A DNA stretch of 64,000 bases from an uncultured Ruminococcus sp. (GCA_905233145.1 CAJODI010000017.1:15599-79598), one strand, 5' to 3'. Counted from the first letter of the stretch, positions 2,413 through 10,515 are shown. Notes: generated from the letters alone by a model not told the origin. Translations and numbers: made by a program.

Positions 2413-3363
2413 ATGAAAAATAATAATGCAAAAAGCGTATTCTGTCTGTTTTTGACAGCATTTATATGGGGAACCGGCTTTGTAACTCAAACGATGGGCG
2501 GCAACTACATGCAGCCGTTTACATTTGTAGCTATAAGGTATTTCCTTGGCGGCTTGGTTATATTGCCCCTGGCTTTGATAATCTTTTTTAAGGACAGAAA
2601 AAAGAAGGCTGAAAACCGACTGATAAACATAAAGCAAACACTCTGCGGCGGCGTGCTCTGCGGAATCGCTCTTTGCTCAGCTTCACTTTTTCAGCAATAC
2701 GGCGTGATGAACACAACCGTCGGAAAAGCCGGTTTTATTACTGCGATGTATATTATAATTACTCCGATTTTCGGCCTTTTTCTCGGCAAAAAGTGCAGCT
2801 TGGCAATCTGGATAGGGGCTGCGGCGGCAGTTTTCGGAATGTATCTTCTGTGTATAAATGAAGATTTTTCACTTTCCTTCGGTGATTTGCTTATGCTAGT
2901 TTGCGCTGCGTTGTTTTCAGTCCACATTATGATAATCGACAGGTTTTCGCCTCAGACGGACGGTGTGGTTTTATCGTGCTTACAGTTTTTTACCGCCGCC
3001 TTGCTCAGCGGAATACTTTCTTTGATTTTTGATAAGCCTACGTTTTCTCAGATTGGCGACGGATTATTTCCTCTGCTGTACTGCGGAATCATGTCAAGCG
3101 GAGTTGCATATACCTTGCAAATTGTAGGGCAAAGGAATTTTAATCCTACTATCGCCGCTATGATAATGAGTTTAGAGAGCGTAATTTCGGCTGTTGCAGG
3201 ATATTTTGCTTTTAAAATCGGTTTTTTGACAGAGGATCAAAGCCTGAGTCCTACTCAAATTATCGGCTGCGCGATCATTTTTTGCGCTGTGATTTTTGTT
3301 CAGCTGCGTGAAACAAACTCAAAAGCTTCCAAAAAAGCATTAAAGAACCATAAACTCAATTAA
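2413..3363 (+). CDS. DMT/EamA family transporter
   Basis: Ten hydrophobic segments, two EamA repeats (IWGTGFV...RYFLGG; GDLLMLVCAALFSVHI...SLESVISA). Confidence 0.9.
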   Translation: MKNNNAKSVFCLFLTAFIWGTGFVTQTMGGNYMQPFTFVAIRYFLGGLVILPLALIIFFKDRKKKAENRLINIKQTLCGGVLCGIALCSASLFQQYGVMNTTVGKAGFITAMYIIITPIFGLFLGKKCSLAIWIGAAAAVFGMYLLCINEDFSLSFGDLLMLVCAALFSVHIMIIDRFSPQTDGVVLSCLQFFTAALLSGILSLIFDKPTFSQIGDGLFPLLYCGIMSSGVAYTLQIVGQRNFNPTIAAMIMSLESVISAVAGYFAFKIGFLTEDQSLSPTQIIGCAIIFCAVIFVQLRETNSKASKKALKNHKLN

Positions 3364-3371
3364 CCTAAGCA

Positions 3372-3400
3372 TTGACTAAAACAGTGTTTTGTGTTATACT
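3372..3400 (+). promoter_or_regulatory. sigmaA promoter of the cobalamin operon
   Basis: TTGACT(3372-77), 17 nt, TATACT(3395-3400), with TGn extension. Confidence 0.75.
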
Positions 3401-3429
3401 GTTTTTATCGTGTATACGTATGCGAAAAA

Positions 3430-3662
3430 AACAATCAGGTTACGCGTTCCGGCGAATTTCGTCGGGTAATAGAGAATTCGGTGAGAATCCGAAGCAACTG
3501 TCATTACTGTATTTGACGAAGCTTTAACTATAGGCAATACTGCATAATTCGGGTGTGTGGATTGTGCAGTCTGACGGAATAATATGCAAGCAAGATGTGC
3601 GCCGCGAATTGTGCGGTGTTGCCTATACTTTGTCATAAGTCAGATCGCTTCCGCGTAGTCTT
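3430..3662 (+). ncRNA. Cobalamin riboswitch (interrupted by a MITE in P6)
   Basis: Conserved blocks in the correct order: CAGGT(3436), TAATAGAGAA-ttc-GGTGAGAATCC, CAACTGTCATTACTGTA, then AAGTCAGA(3637). TACGCG(3441-46) pairs with CGCGTA(3652-57); TGACGAAG(3514-21) pairs with CTTTGTCA(3628-35). TTTCCTGT(3726-33) can sequester the RBS ACAGGAGGA(3765-73). Lies upstream of a CbrT-like ECF transporter. Confidence 0.85.
3529..3627. mobile_element. MITE family 1, copy A (inside the riboswitch)
   Basis: TATA|GGCAATACTGCATAATTC...GAATTGTGCGGTGTTGCC|TATA; 91-bp core with internal modules shared with copies at 10.5, 29.8 and 32.7 kb. Confidence 0.85.
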
Positions 3663-3777
3663 GGATTTGCATTCTTGGACAAGAAGAAGCGCAGCCAACA
3701 TTTGTTCCCGTTTTTACGGGCTTGTTTTCCTGTGTTTTCTTTCTGAAAAAGGCATTAAGCCAAAACAGGAGGATTTT

Positions 3778-4770
3778 ATGAAAACTTACGCAAAACTCAC
3801 TTCATCCGTGCTTGCCGCCGTTATGCTTGCGGCAGCTCCGCTCACCGTTGCTTATGCTGCAGAGGACAATGCTCCCGGCACGGTGAGAGTAATTGTCAGA
3901 AATGATGTTTTTTCCGCTCAAAACGGTGCGGATTGGGACGGAATTCTGATTGACGAAATTGTAAGCCTTGACAGCAATGACTCAGTAACTTCGGTTATGA
4001 AAGGTGTTTTTGAAGCGCGAAAAATGGAATATACATTTTCCGACAGCTACAAATACTTCCAAAGCGTAAACGGTCTGGACGAATATGAAAATAATGGTTC
4101 CGGAGGCTGGATGATCACGCTCAACGACTGGTTCACGGCTCAGGGTACAGACGCTTATACCGTTCAAAACGGAAAGCTAAAGGACGGAGACGAGCTTTGT
4201 ATGCAGTACAGCTGCTCATGGGGCGCGGATATTTCGAGCATGTGGAGCGACTCAACAACAACTCTCAGCTCGCTTGAAGTTTCCGGAGCGCAGCTTGCAC
4301 CGGAGTTTTCTGCCGATAAAAAGGAATATACTTTAAATATTGATTTGGATACCGCTGAAATTCAGCTTACTCCGACAGCGTATAATAAGAATTTTCAGGT
4401 TAAAATATATAAAAACGAATATACCCCCGAAAGCTATGGCTCAGAGCTTATCAAAAGCAGAAGCTTTGAGGTTAAAGACGGAGACTCTGTTTATATCGGA
4501 GTTGCAAATCCGAATTGGGAAACCATGAATTCCATGCCTTACGAAGAGACAGTTTACAAGTTTGCCGTAAGCTCTGTGAAACCGGTAAAATTCGATGTAA
4601 ACGGAGACGGAGCTTTTGATATTAACGACGCTACAGCGATTCAATTTCACCTTGCAAAGCTCGATACTTTGAGTGAAAACGGTCTTATAGCAGCCGATGC
4701 AAACGAAGACGGCGATGTTGATATAAATGATGTAACATATCTTCAAATGCTTCTTGCAAAGCTTCTGTGA
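3778..4770 (+). CDS. Secreted DUF4430 (transcobalamin C-terminal-like) + cadherin-like beta-sandwich + dockerin protein
   Basis: Start at ATG 3778 after the GGAGG RBS (the ORF-track start at 3595 reads through the riboswitch). Signal peptide MKTYAKLTSSVLAAVMLAAAPLTVAYA; DUF4430-like YFQSVNGLDEYENNGSGGWMITLNDWF...LKDGDELCMQYS; TTLSSLEVSG...FSADKKEYTL; duplicated dockerin DVNGDGAFDINDATAIQ / DANEDGDVDINDVTYLQ. Confidence 0.8.
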   Translation: MKTYAKLTSSVLAAVMLAAAPLTVAYAAEDNAPGTVRVIVRNDVFSAQNGADWDGILIDEIVSLDSNDSVTSVMKGVFEARKMEYTFSDSYKYFQSVNGLDEYENNGSGGWMITLNDWFTAQGTDAYTVQNGKLKDGDELCMQYSCSWGADISSMWSDSTTTLSSLEVSGAQLAPEFSADKKEYTLNIDLDTAEIQLTPTAYNKNFQVKIYKNEYTPESYGSELIKSRSFEVKDGDSVYIGVANPNWETMNSMPYEETVYKFAVSSVKPVKFDVNGDGAFDINDATAIQFHLAKLDTLSENGLIAADANEDGDVDINDVTYLQMLLAKLL

Positions 4771-5924
4771 TGAATAAGAAGTCTTTCGCTTTTGCAATTC
4801 GGCAGACAATAATATGCCTTTTGGTTTTTGCGCAAATATCAGGCGTAACAGTCTTTGCGGCCGATTATGATTCAGTCAACTCAAAGTATCTCTCAACAGG
4901 CAGCTATCTTTCTTCGCTTCCTGCGCCAACATTAGGCTCAATAGGCGGCGAATGGCTTGCGCTCGGACTTGCGCGCTCTTCTTTTATGTCTGAGCAAACT
5001 GCTGAAGCATATTACCAAAACGTTGTTAATACGGTAAAAGCAATTGGCAAGCCTCAGCTTCACAGAGCAAAGTCAACCGAGAATTCAAGAGTTGTGCTTG
5101 CGCTGACTTCTATCGGAAAAGATGTTACCAACGTCGCAGGTTACAATTTACTTGAACCGCTTGCAGACTTTAGCTTTCTAAAAAAGCAGGGAATCAATGG
5201 CTCTGTTTGGGCGTTAATTGCTTTTGACTGCAACAACTACAAAATTCCGGATATCAATTACGGTAAGCAGGTTACAAGAGAAGCTTTGATTGACTATATT
5301 CTTGACGCTCAGCTTCCGGACGGCGGCTGGTCAATTGCAGAAACCGACCCGTCGGCTGACGATATGACCGCAATGGCGGTTCAGTCGCTTGCTCCGTACT
5401 ACAACATCCTGCCCGATGTAAGAGCAGCTGTAAACAGGGCTTTGGGGCTTTTTCCGAATATGTTTAAAGACAGCACTCCCGAAACCTGCGCTCAGCAGAT
5501 GGTTGCACTGACAAGTCTTGGAATTGATCCGCAGAACGAAAGCTTTTTGTACGGCGGTAAGAGTGTGATAGATGAAATGATGCGCTGCTCTGTCAATAAC
5601 GGTTTTTCGCACTTTCCGGGAGATGAATATGACCAAATGTCAACCGAACAGGCTTTTTACGCGCTGACCTCGGTTAAAAGGCTGCACGAGAAAAAAACAG
5701 GTCTGTATGATATGACAGATGTTTTTGCCGGCAGCGACGATTTATATGACGTCAATCTTGATGCTTACTTTGATATAAACGACTGCACAGCAATTCAAAA
5801 GCAGCTTGCAAGACTTGACACCTTGCCATTGCTCGGGTTAAAAAAATCCGACGCCAACCGTGACAGAGAAATTGACATTTCCGACGTTACGTTTCTGCAA
5901 AAGAAGTTGGCTAAAATTATTTGA
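4767..5924 (+). CDS. Secreted alpha/alpha-barrel (prenyltransferase/squalene-oxidase-repeat-like) protein with C-terminal dockerin
   Basis: Signal peptide ending VFA|ADY; GGEWLALGLAR, QLPDGGWS, DMTAMAVQSLAPY and STEQAFYAL repeats; dockerin DVNLDAYFDINDCTAIQ / DANRDREIDISDVTFLQ. GTGA/ATG overlap with the upstream gene. Confidence 0.75.
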   Translation: MMNKKSFAFAIRQTIICLLVFAQISGVTVFAADYDSVNSKYLSTGSYLSSLPAPTLGSIGGEWLALGLARSSFMSEQTAEAYYQNVVNTVKAIGKPQLHRAKSTENSRVVLALTSIGKDVTNVAGYNLLEPLADFSFLKKQGINGSVWALIAFDCNNYKIPDINYGKQVTREALIDYILDAQLPDGGWSIAETDPSADDMTAMAVQSLAPYYNILPDVRAAVNRALGLFPNMFKDSTPETCAQQMVALTSLGIDPQNESFLYGGKSVIDEMMRCSVNNGFSHFPGDEYDQMSTEQAFYALTSVKRLHEKKTGLYDMTDVFAGSDDLYDVNLDAYFDINDCTAIQKQLARLDTLPLLGLKKSDANRDREIDISDVTFLQKKLAKII

Positions 5925-5936
5925 GGTTGATTATAA

Positions 5937-6887
5937 ATGCAAAAGCTAATTGCTATTTACAAAAGAAACAAAGTTTATTGTATTATCGGTTTGGTTTCTG
6001 CGATTATTCTCGCACTGACTCTTATTTTCGGCGATAATGCTCCTCACCTGACAGGTAACGTTGTGACGATTGATACAATTGCCAACGCTACTTATGACGA
6101 AGCGGCTCTCAGAAAGCAGCAGCCGACTACGACTCAAAGCGGCATTTTTAACTTTTTCCCGGTAAATAACGACAATAACAATAACAACAATCAAAGCAAC
6201 GATAGCAACAATCCAAATAATTCATCCTCAGTTTCAAATAATAATTCAGGCACACAGCCCACCGACAGCTATCATTTTGTTATGTCTAACGACAGTGTGC
6301 ATGTAAACCCTAACCTTGACTCTATCATTAAGCGTCTTGCCGATGATTTGAAAAATCAAACGACCGTTCCTGCAACTACGAAAAACGACAAGGATAAGGA
6401 CAAGGATAAAGACGAAACTCCGACCAAAAGCCGAACAGATTCAGAGGAGGAAGCAACAGAAGCACGCGAGGAAGAAGATAAGACACTCACCTGTACGATC
6501 TCTATTTCGTGCGCAACAGCCCTCAGCAACAAAGATAAGCTTGACGAGGACAAGGCTGAGCTGATTCCGGCGGACGGTTGGATTCTCAAGCCGGTTACGG
6601 TTGAGTTTACAAATGGTGAAGATCTCGGCGAGGTCATGACACGCGTTTGCAGAGATAACGGAATTCACTTTGAATACACCTTTAATCCGCTTTACAATTC
6701 AAACTATGCAGAGGGAATTGGCAATTTGTATGAGTTTGACTGCGGCTCCGAATCCGGCTGGATGTATAGTGTAAACGGTTGGTATCCTAACTACGGCTAT
6801 TCGCGCTATGAGCTCAAAAATAATGATAACGTCGAATGGAAGTATACTTGCAGCCTGGGTAGGGATATCGGCGGAAGTAATTATTAA
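5937..6887 (+). CDS. Membrane-anchored DUF4430 protein with long low-complexity linker
   Basis: N-terminal TM (YCIIGLVSAIILALTLIFG), N/S/T/D/K/E-rich linker, C-terminal YAEGIGNLYEFDCGSESGWMYSVNGWYPNYG...WKYTC. Confidence 0.85.
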   Translation: MQKLIAIYKRNKVYCIIGLVSAIILALTLIFGDNAPHLTGNVVTIDTIANATYDEAALRKQQPTTTQSGIFNFFPVNNDNNNNNNQSNDSNNPNNSSSVSNNNSGTQPTDSYHFVMSNDSVHVNPNLDSIIKRLADDLKNQTTVPATTKNDKDKDKDKDETPTKSRTDSEEEATEAREEEDKTLTCTISISCATALSNKDKLDEDKAELIPADGWILKPVTVEFTNGEDLGEVMTRVCRDNGIHFEYTFNPLYNSNYAEGIGNLYEFDCGSESGWMYSVNGWYPNYGYSRYELKNNDNVEWKYTCSLGRDIGGSNY

Positions 6888-6909
6888 AGTATTGCCTTAA
6901 TAAAACATT

Positions 6910-6951
6910 AAAAGGAATCGCTGATTAAGCGTAATCGGCGGTTCCTTTTTT
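6910..6951 (+). terminator. Intra-operon hairpin / intrinsic terminator
   Basis: AAAAGGAATCGCTGATTA-AGCG-TAATCGGCGGTTCCTTTT followed by TT. Confidence 0.7.
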
Positions 6952-7012
6952 ATCTGAGATTAGATGAGATCAGTCTGATAAAACATTAAATAGTATTAGC
7001 AGGTTTATTATT

Positions 7013-7903
7013 ATGAAAGATTCTTTTTCAAGGCTGCACCCCGTTGTGTGCTTCTTTTTTTATATATCTGTAATTCTTTTTACAATGCTCGAAAACAATC
7101 CTTTTTGTTTATGCATTTCGCTTGTATGCGCCTTTGTAAACGCAATTACCTTAAACGGTAAAAAAACGCTTGCGCTTACCGTAAAATATCTTTTTCCTAT
7201 GATGCTCATGGTAATAATTATTAATCCTCTGTTCAATCATTCGGGTGCGACGATTCTTAACTATCTTCCGTGGGGCAATCCTTTGACTCTGGAGTCGGTA
7301 TTGTACGGATTTTTTGCCGCAGCACTGTTGTGTTCGGTGGTTTTGTGGTTTTCATCGTTTCACAAGGTTATGACGACTGATAAGCTGGTATATCTTTTTG
7401 GCAGACTTTCTCCGGCGTTAAGCCTTTTGCTTTCTATGTCGTTCAGGCTTGTTCCAAAGCTTTCTTCTCAAACAAAAGAGGTTAGGGATTCTCAAAGAGC
7501 TTTGGGACGAGATCTTTCAAAGGGTTCTATTTTCACAAGACTGAAAACGGCGATAAAAATAATTTCCGTGATGATAACGCGCGTTCTCGAAGATTCTGTA
7601 GAAACGGCGGATTCTATGAAAAGCAGGGGATACGGCTTAAAGGGCAGGACTGCATTTTCGCTGTATTCCTTTAGACAGCGCGATTTTGCTGTAATGTCTG
7701 CAATTGTAATTATGTCTTTAGTTATGATAGCGTTAAAGCTTTGTCATGCTGTAGATTTTAGATTTTTTCCGTCGGTAAAGAGCGGAGAGTTGACAGCAGA
7801 AGCTGTGCTATGCTGCGTAGTTTACTCGTTACTAATGCTTTTGCCGATTATGATTAACATATGGGAGGGGATAAAATGGAAGCGATTACAGTCAGCAATC
7901 TAA
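7013..7903 (+). CDS. ecfT: ECF transporter transmembrane T component
   Basis: LHPVV N-terminus, multiple TMs, coupling helices RLVPKL...SQRALG and ADSMKSRGYG. Confidence 0.9.
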   Translation: MKDSFSRLHPVVCFFFYISVILFTMLENNPFCLCISLVCAFVNAITLNGKKTLALTVKYLFPMMLMVIIINPLFNHSGATILNYLPWGNPLTLESVLYGFFAAALLCSVVLWFSSFHKVMTTDKLVYLFGRLSPALSLLLSMSFRLVPKLSSQTKEVRDSQRALGRDLSKGSIFTRLKTAIKIISVMITRVLEDSVETADSMKSRGYGLKGRTAFSLYSFRQRDFAVMSAIVIMSLVMIALKLCHAVDFRFFPSVKSGELTAEAVLCCVVYSLLMLLPIMINIWEGIKWKRLQSAI

Positions 7904-10515
7904 GCTTTATTTATCCTGAAGAAACGCAGCCGGCGATAGAAAATGCTTCATTTTCGATTAACAGCGGTGAATTTGTCACCCTTTACGGACGTTCCGGAAG
8001 CGGAAAAACAACTCTTCTGAGACTATTAAAGCCTTCGCTGGCTCCGCACGGCAACAAAAGCGGAAAGGTGTTTTTTTTCGGAAAGGATATCTGTGTGCTT
8101 GATCACAGAGAAGAATCCCAGAGAATCGGTTTTGTTCAACAGTCCCCGGAAAATCAAATTGTAACCGACAAGGTTTGGCACGAGCTTGCGTTCGGGCTTG
8201 AAAATTTGGGACTTGATAACAGCGTTATTCGCAGAAAAGTTGCCGAAACCGCTGCGTTTTTTGGAATTGAGCAATGGTTTGAAAAATCCGTTTTTGAGCT
8301 TTCGGGCGGTCAAAAGCAGATACTAAGTCTCGCTTCAATTATGGCAATGCAGCCTGACATACTAATACTTGACGAGCCTGCAAGCAGACTGGATCCCATT
8401 GCGTCAGAGGAATTTTTCGGCTGTCTTTCAAAAATCAACCGGGAGCTCGGAATAACGGTTATCATCACAGAACACAAGCTTGATGAGCTTTTGCCGCTGA
8501 GTAATCGGATTTTGGTTATTGACAAGGGAAAAATAATTTGTGATTCAAATCCGCGTGAGCTTGGTAAAATCATAAATAAGTGTCGGTGGGCGTCCTGCGG
8601 CGGATTATTTCTTTCAATGCCTGCACCGGTCAAAATCTGGAATGCTGTTGACGGAACAGGGCAGTGTCCGCTTACAGTTGCAGAGGGCAGACAATGGCTT
8701 GAACAGTTTTCGAAAAATAATTCTTTCAGAGAACTAAATCCTAAGCCAAAGCGTGAGTGCACAGATATTGCAGTAAGTCTGAAAAATATATATTATAGAT
8801 ATGAAAAAGATTCCGGTGATGTTATAAAAGATTTGAGCCTTGATTTCAGAGAAGGAGAATTCACCGCTGTTTTAGGCGGAAACGGCGCGGGAAAAACCAC
8901 TTTGCTTTCTGTTATCAGCGGGATTAACAAGCCGTATTCGGGAACGGTCAGATGCTTCCGCAGGGTTGGCTTTCTTCCTCAAAATCCACACAGCCTTTTC
9001 TTAAAAAACACCGTTTACGAGGATTTATGCGAGGTTTTTGACGGTTCAGGTATACCTAAGGAAGAAACCAATCGCCGAGTAACCTCAATTGCCTCGCTAT
9101 GTAAGCTTAACAGCCTTTTGAACAGACATCCTTTTGATTTATCCGGCGGTGAACAGCAACGCGCTGCATTGGCAAAGGTTATGCTACTCAGCCCCGAAGT
9201 TCTTTTGCTTGACGAACCGACAAAGGGCTTTGACGCCGAATTTAAGCTTGTTTTTGCCGAAATAATACAAAGACTCACTGCTTCCGGAGTTACGGTGATA
9301 ATGGTAAGCCACGATGTTGAATTCTGCGCGGCTCACGCGCACAATTGCGTAATGCTTTTTAACGGTGACGCTGTTTCTTCGGGAAGTCCCGGGGAGTTTT
9401 TCAACTCAAACAGCTTTTATTCAACTTCGGCTAACAGAATGTCAAAAGGGATAATCAACGGTGCTATAACAGCCGAAGACGTGATTTACTGCTGCAATGT
9501 TGATTTACCTGACAATATACAAGGTGACACGGAAAAGATACAGTCTTTTGTGTTGCCTAAAGAAATAAAAAAAACAGACCGGAACAAGAATAATTCAAAA
9601 CAACTTTCTCCGATAAAAAAAGTGCTGGGAATAATAAGCGTCGCAATGCTTATTGCCGGAGTTTTTATTAATCTTGATATATTTGGGATGTTCGACATCA
9701 GTGAAAGCTATATACCAATTAACATTTTACTTATTGCGTTGCCGATTGTTTTGCTGATGTTTTCATTTGGAGCCTTTTCAAAATCAGAAAGCGTGGGAAT
9801 TGATGTTTCTGAAAAAACAAAATTGCGAAAAAGAACTATATTCGCGGCTGTTATGATAGTTCTCGCCATTCCTCTTACTATCTTTTTTGGAATTAACTTT
9901 CTAAACGATGAGAAATACATATTTATTTCGTTGCTTGTTATGCTCGAGGCTTCTTTGCCGTTTTTCTTGATCTTTGAGGACAGAAAACCACAGGCCAGGG
10001 AACTGGTTATCTTGTCTGCGCTTTGCGCGATCGCGGTTGCCGGAAGAGCTGCATTTTATATGCTTCCGATGTTTAAGCCTGTTTTAGCGGTTGTGATTAT
10101 TACAGGCGTAGCCTTTGGAGGTGAATCAGGATTTATTGTTGGAGCAATGACAATGCTGCTTTCTAATGTGTTTTTTGGTCAGGGTCCTTGGACGCCGTGG
10201 CAGATGTTTGCCGCCGGAATAATCGGCTTTTTGGCAGGGGTACTGTTCAAAAAGGGTTTTCTGAGCAGAAACAGGGGATCACTTTGTGTTTTCGGATTTG
10301 TCGCTACAATGATTATTTACGGACCGATTATGAACTTTGCGTCGTTTATAATGACTCGTTCGCCCTGGGATTCCAAAATAATAGCTTCGTTTTTTATTCA
10401 GGGCTTTCCGATGGATTTGATTCACGCTTTTTCAACGCTTGTTTTTCTGTTTTTTGCCGCAGAGCCTATGCTCGAAAAGCTTGACAGAATCAAAGTTAAA
10501 TACGGTTTATATTAA
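7876..10515 (+). CDS. Fused ECF ATPase A-A' plus CbrT-like S component
   Basis: Start at ATG 7876 after GGAGGGG. Two ABC domains (GRSGSGKTT/LSGGQKQ/ILDEP; GGNGAGKTT/LSGGEQQR/LLDEP), an extra TM pair, then an S component with KPVLAVVIITG...FFGQGPWTPWQM. Confidence 0.88.
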   Translation: MEAITVSNLSFIYPEETQPAIENASFSINSGEFVTLYGRSGSGKTTLLRLLKPSLAPHGNKSGKVFFFGKDICVLDHREESQRIGFVQQSPENQIVTDKVWHELAFGLENLGLDNSVIRRKVAETAAFFGIEQWFEKSVFELSGGQKQILSLASIMAMQPDILILDEPASRLDPIASEEFFGCLSKINRELGITVIITEHKLDELLPLSNRILVIDKGKIICDSNPRELGKIINKCRWASCGGLFLSMPAPVKIWNAVDGTGQCPLTVAEGRQWLEQFSKNNSFRELNPKPKRECTDIAVSLKNIYYRYEKDSGDVIKDLSLDFREGEFTAVLGGNGAGKTTLLSVISGINKPYSGTVRCFRRVGFLPQNPHSLFLKNTVYEDLCEVFDGSGIPKEETNRRVTSIASLCKLNSLLNRHPFDLSGGEQQRAALAKVMLLSPEVLLLDEPTKGFDAEFKLVFAEIIQRLTASGVTVIMVSHDVEFCAAHAHNCVMLFNGDAVSSGSPGEFFNSNSFYSTSANRMSKGIINGAITAEDVIYCCNVDLPDNIQGDTEKIQSFVLPKEIKKTDRNKNNSKQLSPIKKVLGIISVAMLIAGVFINLDIFGMFDISESYIPINILLIALPIVLLMFSFGAFSKSESVGIDVSEKTKLRKRTIFAAVMIVLAIPLTIFFGINFLNDEKYIFISLLVMLEASLPFFLIFEDRKPQARELVILSALCAIAVAGRAAFYMLPMFKPVLAVVIITGVAFGGESGFIVGAMTMLLSNVFFGQGPWTPWQMFAAGIIGFLAGVLFKKGFLSRNRGSLCVFGFVATMIIYGPIMNFASFIMTRSPWDSKIIASFFIQGFPMDLIHAFSTLVFLFFAAEPMLEKLDRIKVKYGLY

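Follow-up and report, generated by a model that had tools for sequence, protein, structure and literature searches.

A stretch of 64,000 nucleotides from an uncultured Ruminococcus sp. (GCA_905233145.1 CAJODI010000017.1:15599-79598), given as one strand and called the window below, carries on its + strand a compact operon of five genes (positions 3372-10515), delineated by the calling of open reading frames (ORFs) and by Pfam and TIGR profiles. According to our analysis, this operon probably (at about 60%, in our own estimate) serves to scavenge vitamin B12 (corrinoid) in a B12-auxotrophic bacterium of the Ruminococcus bromii group, with capture by two separate chains (ORF1, bearing a beta-domain, and ORF2, bearing an alpha/alpha toroid) and hand-off to an importer encoded by ORF4 and ORF5 (Table 1).

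In the mechanism that we propose, scarcity of B12 would lead a cobalamin riboswitch to permit transcription through a terminator, ORF1 and ORF2 would be exported by means of their own signal peptides, and their closely related dockerins would attach them to the cohesins of scaffoldins on the cell surface. There, the two proteins would jointly do the job of the single beta-Ig-toroid-dockerin chain (Ig, immunoglobulin-like domain) found in sister species such as R. bromii ATCC 27255; as in transcobalamin, the corrinoid would most likely be caught between the two parts, with the beta-domain facing the toroid's mouth. The ligand would then pass to the beta-domain of ORF3, carried on a long flexible membrane tether, and from it to the CbrT-type S domain of the ORF4/ORF5 transporter, which, by homology, would import it. 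The binding of the ligand, the clamp made of two chains, the role of the scaffoldin in joining the halves and the order of the hand-off are what we infer; the evidence is laid out below.

Two secreted halves, their fused orthologs and their dockerins

An earlier note on this DNA had described a beta-domain ORF (3778-4770) and an overlapping barrel ORF, each ending in a dockerin, and both the Pfam profiles and the AlphaFold2 (AF2) modelling agree with this description. In ORF1, DUF4430 (PF14478) is matched over residues 68-132 (30 bits for a Pfam curated cut-off of 23.8), a cadherin-like beta sandwich over residues 163-242 (29.7 bits for a cut-off of 24.2) and Dockerin_1 over residues 272-323 (31 bits for a cut-off of 22.9), an architecture found again in about 60 clusters of dockerin-bearing ORF1 homologs of 326-338 amino acids (aa). 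In TCN proteins, DUF4430 is the domain at the C-terminus (PMC4350170), and the genome contains two such domains, both in the operon (ORF1 and ORF3). At one related locus (L025:304-2050), the beta-domain and Ig module of a 582-aa ORF1-like protein are tandemly duplicated ahead of the dockerin. As for ORF2, Dockerin_1 is matched at 23.2 bits (cut-off of 22.9), the ~290 residues that precede it are devoid of any Pfam match at threshold, and the AF2 model, computed from a 73-sequence alignment, is an all-helical toroid followed by the dockerin (pLDDT of 92.6, pTM of 0.87); the body of ORF2 is thus modelled with high confidence as an alpha/alpha toroid. The signal peptides of both proteins can be read directly in the sequence, with cleavage after AYA in ORF1 and after VFA in ORF2. 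The start of ORF2, placed by the earlier note at the GTG at 4767, is most likely the ATG at 4770, which overlaps the TGA stop of ORF1 by one base (TGATG). This very junction, with the genes adjacent, is conserved in the two closest relatives (87% and 70% identity).

The case for reading ORF1 and ORF2 as two halves of one functional unit comes from the comparison of related loci. Our sample consisted of 121 genomes of the genus, 68 of them with a barrel match, from which 40 loci were cut out; any absence reported for such genome samples applies to the searched genomes alone. Homologs of ORF2 fall into two classes, one of ~380 aa, like ORF2 itself, and the other of 615-715 aa, in which a signal peptide, a DUF4430 domain, a cadherin-like domain, a toroid and a single dockerin follow each other in this order. 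Over their whole length, these long proteins align with ORF1 (without its dockerin) followed by ORF2 (without its signal peptide), and the two forms share one syntenic order: FeoB/FeoA (on the other strand), riboswitch leader, the fused gene or the two split genes, a membrane-anchored DUF4430 protein (TM-DUF4430), CbiQ, ABC-ABC-S, M24 peptidase, amidase and RadA. Among the 40 loci, the split form with both its genes is found at about 20 and the fused form at 13 (including that of R. bromii ATCC 27255, locus L029/L071), while two have the barrel with its dockerin but no ORF1-like gene, four show a third arrangement, and the remainder are cut by contig ends. In L049, L050, L057 and L059, the genes encode a dockerin-less barrel protein of 500-534 aa, a divergent barrel paralog of 397-517 aa and a DUF4430 protein of 183-186 aa.

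The earlier note had called for a look at homologs with both domains in one chain, and these do exist, as beta-Ig-toroid-dockerin chains at the syntenic locus of 13 sampled genomes. That the beta-Ig part and the barrel form a covalent single chain there argues for their joint action, and the presence of fused orthologs at the same locus supports the idea that ORF1 and ORF2 are two halves of one functional unit. The two genes lie next to each other in 20 of the 22 split loci that could be evaluated (one row scored as split, L034, is a truncation at a contig end). When compared with the two nearest relatives, every domain has a dN/dS of 0.06-0.32 (0.08-0.10 for the barrel, 0.12-0.21 for the ORF1 dockerin, 0.1-0.2 for both genes), so that both halves, including the extra dockerin of ORF1, are under purifying selection.

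Each of the two dockerins, both of type I (PF00404), is made of two calcium-binding loop/helix repeats in which the calcium-loop residues are intact (DVNGDGAFDIND and DANEDGDVDIND in ORF1, DVNLDAYFDIND and DANRDREIDISD in ORF2). The motif DINDxTAIQxxLAxLDTL, which the earlier note had seen in both, is real: the two domains are reciprocal best matches among the 59 dockerin matches of the genome (61% identity, 67.8 bits), even though the margin is small for the ORF1 dockerin, whose runner-up reaches 65.1 bits. The genome also has eight cohesin matches, and two open frames with several of them are candidate scaffoldins, one of 1909 aa with three cohesins, two of which are ~100 residues apart (G000:C26:13300-15651), and the other of 765 aa with two cohesins (G000:C74:291-1292). 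With such multi-cohesin frames in the genome, it is possible that both halves dock on one scaffoldin, in which case co-docking would mainly raise their local concentration.

A bolder version of the same idea is that the cohesin-dockerin scaffold assembles a two-chain, high-affinity corrinoid receptor, neighbouring cohesins and ligand-induced closure together rebuilding a transcobalamin-like clamp; we put it forward tentatively, as a possibility on the doubtful side. Ligand-induced assembly of two chains has a precedent, since the alpha and beta parts of intrinsic factor, once separated by proteolysis, come together again around cobalamin. It is also known that the isolated beta-domains of transcobalamin and intrinsic factor bind cobalamin, which counts for a different account, unlikely in our opinion though the main rival to ours, where ORF1 and ORF2 are independent surface modules of a relay: the beta-domains of ORF1 and ORF3 would bind corrinoid singly, the dockerins would just retain the proteins on the cell, and the adjacency of cohesins would be irrelevant. 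In line with this, no ORF1-like gene was found at L040 and L043, which have a barrel with a dockerin, nor is there one at L049, L050, L057 and L059, where a short DUF4430 protein accompanies two barrels, whereas an ORF3-like gene is kept at every orthologous locus examined. Strict pairing of ORF1 with ORF2 is therefore not universal, and the ratio of beta-domains to barrels varies accordingly, from 2:1 in the window to 1:1 in L040 and L043 and 1:2 in the four two-barrel loci; the duplicated beta-Ig module of L025 points in the same direction. On the evidence of these six loci, the barrel's partner could be ORF3 rather than ORF1, and in this relay the toroid would either pair with ORF3 or act as an accessory, for instance by stripping B12 from the binders of the host or of competitors or by selecting corrinoid variants. 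Against the relay stand the 13 genomes in which an ORF1-type beta-Ig part and the barrel make up one chain, the adjacency of the genes in nearly all evaluable split loci and their translational coupling in the lineage of the window.

Leader, transporter and ligand

That the ligand is B12 is supported, at the level of sequence, by three elements of context: the riboswitch of the leader, the CbrT-type S domain of the transporter, and a B12-binding enzyme domain in a genome without CbiD. The first of these, a match of RF00174 at positions 3428-3620, extends over the full length of the model (E-value of 2e-5), includes the conserved core GGTGAGAATCCGAAGC and is followed by a B12-box-like ATAAGTCAGATCGC at 3634-3647; it is also the one place in the whole genome where RF00174 is matched. 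Its score (28.2 bits) is lower than the gathering score of 31.5 because a repeat of 99 nucleotides (nt) is inserted in the variable stem. This element yields 290 high-scoring segment pairs with blastn over the contigs of the genome, including near-full-length copies at 90-96% identity; it is flanked by TATA, and its hairpin caused a spurious match to mir-4703. At related loci, RF00174 reaches or exceeds the gathering score in 10 cases out of 19 (32-49 bits), split and fused alike, and it does so too in the nearest relative (L061; 33.8 bits), which is free of the insertion and brings the number of such loci to 11; L012 has the same core sequence as the window with 27 bits. Downstream of the aptamer, the terminator-like hairpin at 3707-3734 is the probable expression platform of the riboswitch.

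Table 1. Features of the operon and of its leader, in window coordinates
Feature	Position	Strand	Description
Sigma-70-like promoter (candidate)	3372..3400	+	TTGACT-17-TATACT, TG-extended; 10/12 in the consensus scan; called by consensus match alone; adjoins the 5' side of the riboswitch
Cobalamin riboswitch aptamer	3428..3660	+	interrupted by the repeat element at 3529-3627
Hairpin-forming repeat element resembling a miniature inverted-repeat transposable element (MITE-like), 99 nt	3529..3627		within the variable stem of the riboswitch
Terminator-like hairpin and T-run	3707..3734	+	CCCGTTTTTACGGG then CTTGTTTTCC; between the aptamer and the ribosome-binding site of ORF1
Ribosome-binding site of ORF1	3768-3773	+	AGGAGG
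ORF1, 330 aa	3778..4770	+	signal peptide 3778-3858; DUF4430/SLBB ~3979-4173; cadherin-like Ig ~4264-4503; dockerin ~4591-4746
ORF2, 384 aa	4770..5924	+	signal peptide 4770-4859; alpha/alpha toroid ~4866-5729; dockerin ~5745-5909
ORF3, 316 aa	5937..6887	+	N-terminal membrane anchor; Asn/Ser/Asp/Lys-rich low-complexity linker; C-terminal DUF4430/SLBB
ORF4, T component of an energy-coupling factor (ECF) transporter (CbiQ family)	7013..7903	+	PF02361, 52.9 bits; TIGR02454, weak
ORF5, 884 aa	7861..10515	+	two ECF ATPase domains; C-terminal CbrT-like S component ~9988-10515

Downstream of the two capture genes, ORF3 holds the second and stronger beta-domain of the operon (PF14478, 56.2 bits, residues 229-304). 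In ORF5, the ATPase part is matched twice by ABC_tran, as well as by ECF_ATPase_1/2 at 341 and 331 bits, while its C-terminal 204 aa have a sole match in the PDB, chain A of 6FNP, over nearly the full chain (E-value of 6.6e-10). This structure is that of ECF-CbrT, the vitamin B12 transporter of Lactobacillus delbrueckii, which carries cobalamin and cobinamide and for which hemin is no competitor (PMC5997447). On this basis, ORF4 and ORF5 are predicted to form a CbrT-type B12 importer. The fusion of A, A' and S is conserved in all the orthologous loci seen (860-891 aa); S components are normally separate, dissociable subunits.

With regard to the need for the vitamin, the genome, estimated to be 100% complete, encodes one B12-binding domain, MetH-like and located in a frame of 826 aa, and a search of the same genome for CbiD returned nothing. 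R. bromii itself has been described as incapable of B12 synthesis (PMC6231298), and the host of our operon also appears unable to make B12.

Three further explanations, namely that the ligand is heme, that ORF2 is an enzyme or that the gene is decaying, are much less likely than the relay. Another tetrapyrrole would, in our view, be a very unlikely ligand; heme was proposed for Lactobacillus sakei Lsa1836-1840, an operon of the same composition, on the strength of heme-uptake phenotypes and docking (bioRxiv 10.1101/864751), and it might also be favoured by the FeoB/FeoA iron-uptake genes, which are the immediate neighbours of our operon on the opposite strand. However, the cobalamin riboswitch is conserved over split and fused loci, the S domain is homologous to that of a transporter in which hemin does not compete, and the genome combines a B12-dependent enzyme domain with a lack of CbiD. 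In the window, a gene for an EamA-family transporter (2413-3363) lies between feoA and the riboswitch, as it does in L015 and L061; it is not at that position in L012, L013, L017 and L019.

Fold of the toroid and origin of the split

The ORF2 model was compared with the PDB using Foldseek, which returned weak matches (E-values of 4e-3 to 0.1, TM scores of 0.34-0.48), all the good ones being toroids of six hairpins. Farnesyl- and geranylgeranyl-transferase beta subunits hold ranks 1 and 2, rat and human transcobalamin ranks 3, 5, 10 and 11 (8ixt at rank 3 and 7qbg at rank 5) and intrinsic factor ranks 20 and 44; further matches are type II terpene cyclases and complement TED domains. With the model of a fused ortholog (pLDDT of 92.8, pTM of 0.72), transcobalamin in complex with CD320 (TC:CD320) is at rank 5, and alpha2-macroglobulin and C3 come at the top because in them, too, a TED toroid comes after an Ig domain. 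Over the two models, E-values range from 4e-5 to 0.1 and TM scores from 0.25 to 0.48. The likeness to transcobalamin expected by the earlier note is thus borne out as regards the toroid fold, with transcobalamin and intrinsic factor among the best matches, but not as a preference over farnesyltransferase beta subunits or terpene cyclases. A reading as thioester proteins was rejected, the conserved E[ST]CAQ of the family being different from the CGEQ thioester motif.

Several observations weigh against our reading, in addition to the six loci without an ORF1-like gene. First, the riboswitch of the window is below the Rfam threshold and bears an insertion. Second, transcobalamin obtains the same TM scores (0.34-0.47) and E-values as farnesyltransferase beta subunits, terpene cyclases and TED domains, PF01122 (Cobalamin_bind) is matched neither in ORF2 nor in any of the 73 family members, and the profile of the barrel family, run against PDB sequences, finds no transcobalamin, intrinsic factor or haptocorrin at an E-value of 10 or less. 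The homology of the barrel to the transcobalamin alpha-domain is therefore supported as far as a shared fold class, and not demonstrably beyond it. Third, the profile of the family beta-domains, run with hmmsearch against PDB sequences, does not reach transcobalamin, intrinsic factor or haptocorrin either and retrieves nothing meaningful. Fourth, the order of the fused chains (beta, Ig, toroid) is the reverse of that of transcobalamin, and the packing between domains is unreadable from the AF2 model of the fused ortholog.

The same searches bear on a possible enzymatic role of ORF2 outside the cell, as a member of the terpene cyclase/prenyltransferase superfamily, which we deem highly improbable. 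In the PDB, the barrel profile matches dockerins and class II cyclase-type proteins, its best non-dockerin hits being proteins with SQHop_cyclase_C, such as drimenyl diphosphate synthase (E-value of 7e-6), and squalene-hopene cyclase (3e-3). Moreover, 48-51 of the 73 family members match PF00432 or PF13243 at an E-value of 0.01 or less, and a dockerin protein of R. bromii L2-63 has been annotated as a "putative terpene cyclase" (PMC4611034), this protein being probably the ortholog, in the fused form, of the locus studied here. With respect to the label "prenyltransferase/squalene oxidase repeat", which the earlier note expected from annotation pipelines, ORF2 itself stays below the cut-off of PF00432 (14.9 bits for 26.5; E-value of 0.018), and so do, for either family, all the relatives with printed scores except P0076 (PF13243, 27.8 bits for 26.1). 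The similarity amounts to a generic QxxDGGW...D.T..A...L repeat, and the family lacks the DxDD general-acid motif that marks class II cyclases, showing [AS]DPD[MVIL]T instead (SADDMT in ORF2). In addition, a signal peptide and a dockerin imply an extracellular location, away from isoprenoid diphosphates, while the gene belongs to a riboswitch-controlled operon for B12 transport and has orthologs fused to an SLBB domain. Taken together, the export signals, the operon context and the absent DxDD lead us to favour a binding module over an enzyme, as the earlier note did, even if sequence profiles hit cyclase repeats only and even if L040 and L043 do without the ORF1 partner that it assigned to the barrel.

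The least probable explanation, considered because fused orthologs exist and with no evidence found in its favour, is that the split merely reflects decay or misassembly of a fused gene and has no special function. Against it, a signal peptide and a dockerin are present on each half, the same architecture is seen again in ~60 protein clusters and ~20 sampled genomes, the junction is identical in the relatives at 87% and 70%, and dN/dS is low in both genes.

Regarding the direction of the change between the two forms, a maximum-likelihood tree of 44 barrel domains has an unresolved backbone; split and fused loci each form several supported clades, and at least three changes are forced. The window stands alone on a long branch. 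Outside the genus, most beta-Ig-toroid modules are found in a single chain, frequently as part of giant surface proteins, which speaks for fission. Fusion would be mechanistically simpler, as going from split to fused takes a single in-frame deletion, and it is also favoured by a conserved small gene, described below, at the junction of the halves in many split loci. A tandem duplication at the origin of the two halves was considered on account of their dockerins, which are reciprocal best matches, yet it is not established, because the two signal peptides show no similarity.

A conserved small cytoplasmic ORF of 55-90 aa, with a core FDSETVCFIKQKLGPWPRALEKAGLK that matches the homing-endonuclease-associated repeat PF18780 (E-values of 2e-9 to 2e-10), lies exactly between the two halves in at least eight split loci (L017:5742-6011, L019:5741-5998, L022, L023, L030, L041, L051 and L054) and directly ahead of the barrel gene in L049, L050, L057 and L059, whose barrels lack a dockerin. 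Using tblastn, it was not found in the genome of the window. This ORF may have a bearing on the origin of the split or on the regulation of the operon.

The beta-Ig-toroid module is very widespread among gut Clostridia. A full-database search with the fused protein (P0084 family) retrieved 8309 cluster representatives at an E-value of 1e-3 or less, with lengths of up to 3692 aa. Many of them are proteins of 1000-3700 aa with several copies, which pipelines label as prenyltransferase- or cyclase-like. In species-level genomes, more than 590 loci extend from Ruminococcus to Blautia luti, Oscillibacter, Lentihominibacter and Faecousia.

Known systems and significance

The building blocks of this operon are those of transcobalamin, intrinsic factor and haptocorrin, i.e., an alpha/alpha toroid and a DUF4430/SLBB beta-domain, secreted and used in a context of B12 uptake. 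Nevertheless, transcobalamin is one chain with the alpha-domain first and the beta-domain second, whereas here there are two chains, with fused orthologs ordered beta-Ig-toroid. Furthermore, the toroid has cyclase-type repeats instead of PF01122, dockerins are present, and an ECF transporter, not an endocytic receptor, would take over the ligand. In Bacteroides, BtuG and BtuH are surface lipoproteins that capture B12 with high affinity and feed a transporter, again in a gut commensal competing for corrinoids, but they have unrelated folds, reside in the outer membrane, deliver to the TonB-dependent BtuB and are not known to be tethered by cohesins and dockerins.

The idea of a "split transcobalamin" is not new, as two earlier studies show. 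In defining the SLBB superfamily, Burroughs, Balaji, Iyer and Aravind (2007) predicted B12 scavenging by bacterial proteins combining a toroid with SLBB (PMC1796856). All the features that they listed are found here: a signal peptide, an SLBB domain of the transcobalamin clade, a toroid at the N- or C-terminus, a second SLBB paralog, CbiO/CbiQ-like genes and a host without B12 synthesis. What they described were fusions and Gram-positive sortase anchors, without dockerin tethering, a two-chain split with dockerins, or riboswitch or CbrT evidence. Later on, Verplaetse et al. (2019) modelled, in L. sakei, a heterodimer of Lsa1839 (beta-like) and Lsa1840 (alpha-like) around a tetrapyrrole, next to the ECF transporter Lsa1836-1838 (bioRxiv 10.1101/864751). 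There, too, the beta-like and alpha-like proteins are separate, secreted and encoded beside an ECF transporter, but heme is the proposed ligand, and dockerins, an Ig-like domain and a riboswitch are unreported. As for the transporter, ECF-CbrT (6FNP; PMC5997447) has a homologous S domain and the same ECF T and ATPase parts as ORF4/ORF5, from which it differs in that A, A' and S here make up one chain of 884 aa, in a dedicated rather than shared module co-encoded with extracellular capture proteins.

Regarding the tether, the dockerins are of the same type as those of the R. bromii amylosome, with the dockerins of R. bromii Amy10, Amy12 and Amy16 as best PDB matches. The cargo is amylase in the amylosome (PMC4611034) and a vitamin-capture module here, and our genome has 59 dockerin matches, roughly double the number (26) given for R. 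bromii L2-63 in the same study. A literature search combining dockerin with transcobalamin, cobalamin and corrinoid found no prior account of a dockerin-tethered variant. Nor did it find a description of such a split with a dockerin on each half, of split and fused forms side by side at one locus within a genus, or of riboswitch and CbrT evidence combined to fix the class of the ligand. The new element is a variant that is tethered by dockerins and occurs naturally in both split and fused forms.

Members of the R. bromii group are keystone degraders of starch in the human and animal gut, and this role, together with their lack of B12 synthesis, makes their acquisition of corrinoids ecologically important. 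If our reading is true, a widespread surface family now labelled as terpene cyclase- or prenyltransferase-like would become a source of candidate B12 capture proteins in gut Clostridia, the cohesin-dockerin system would have a use unrelated to carbohydrates, and ECF transporters, whose usual description includes no extracellular binding proteins, would gain such partners. Because split and fused forms coexist in a single genus, they amount to a natural experiment on the contribution of tethering to affinity. Should the co-docked clamp be true as well, the amylosome of a keystone gut species would double as a platform for B12 piracy.

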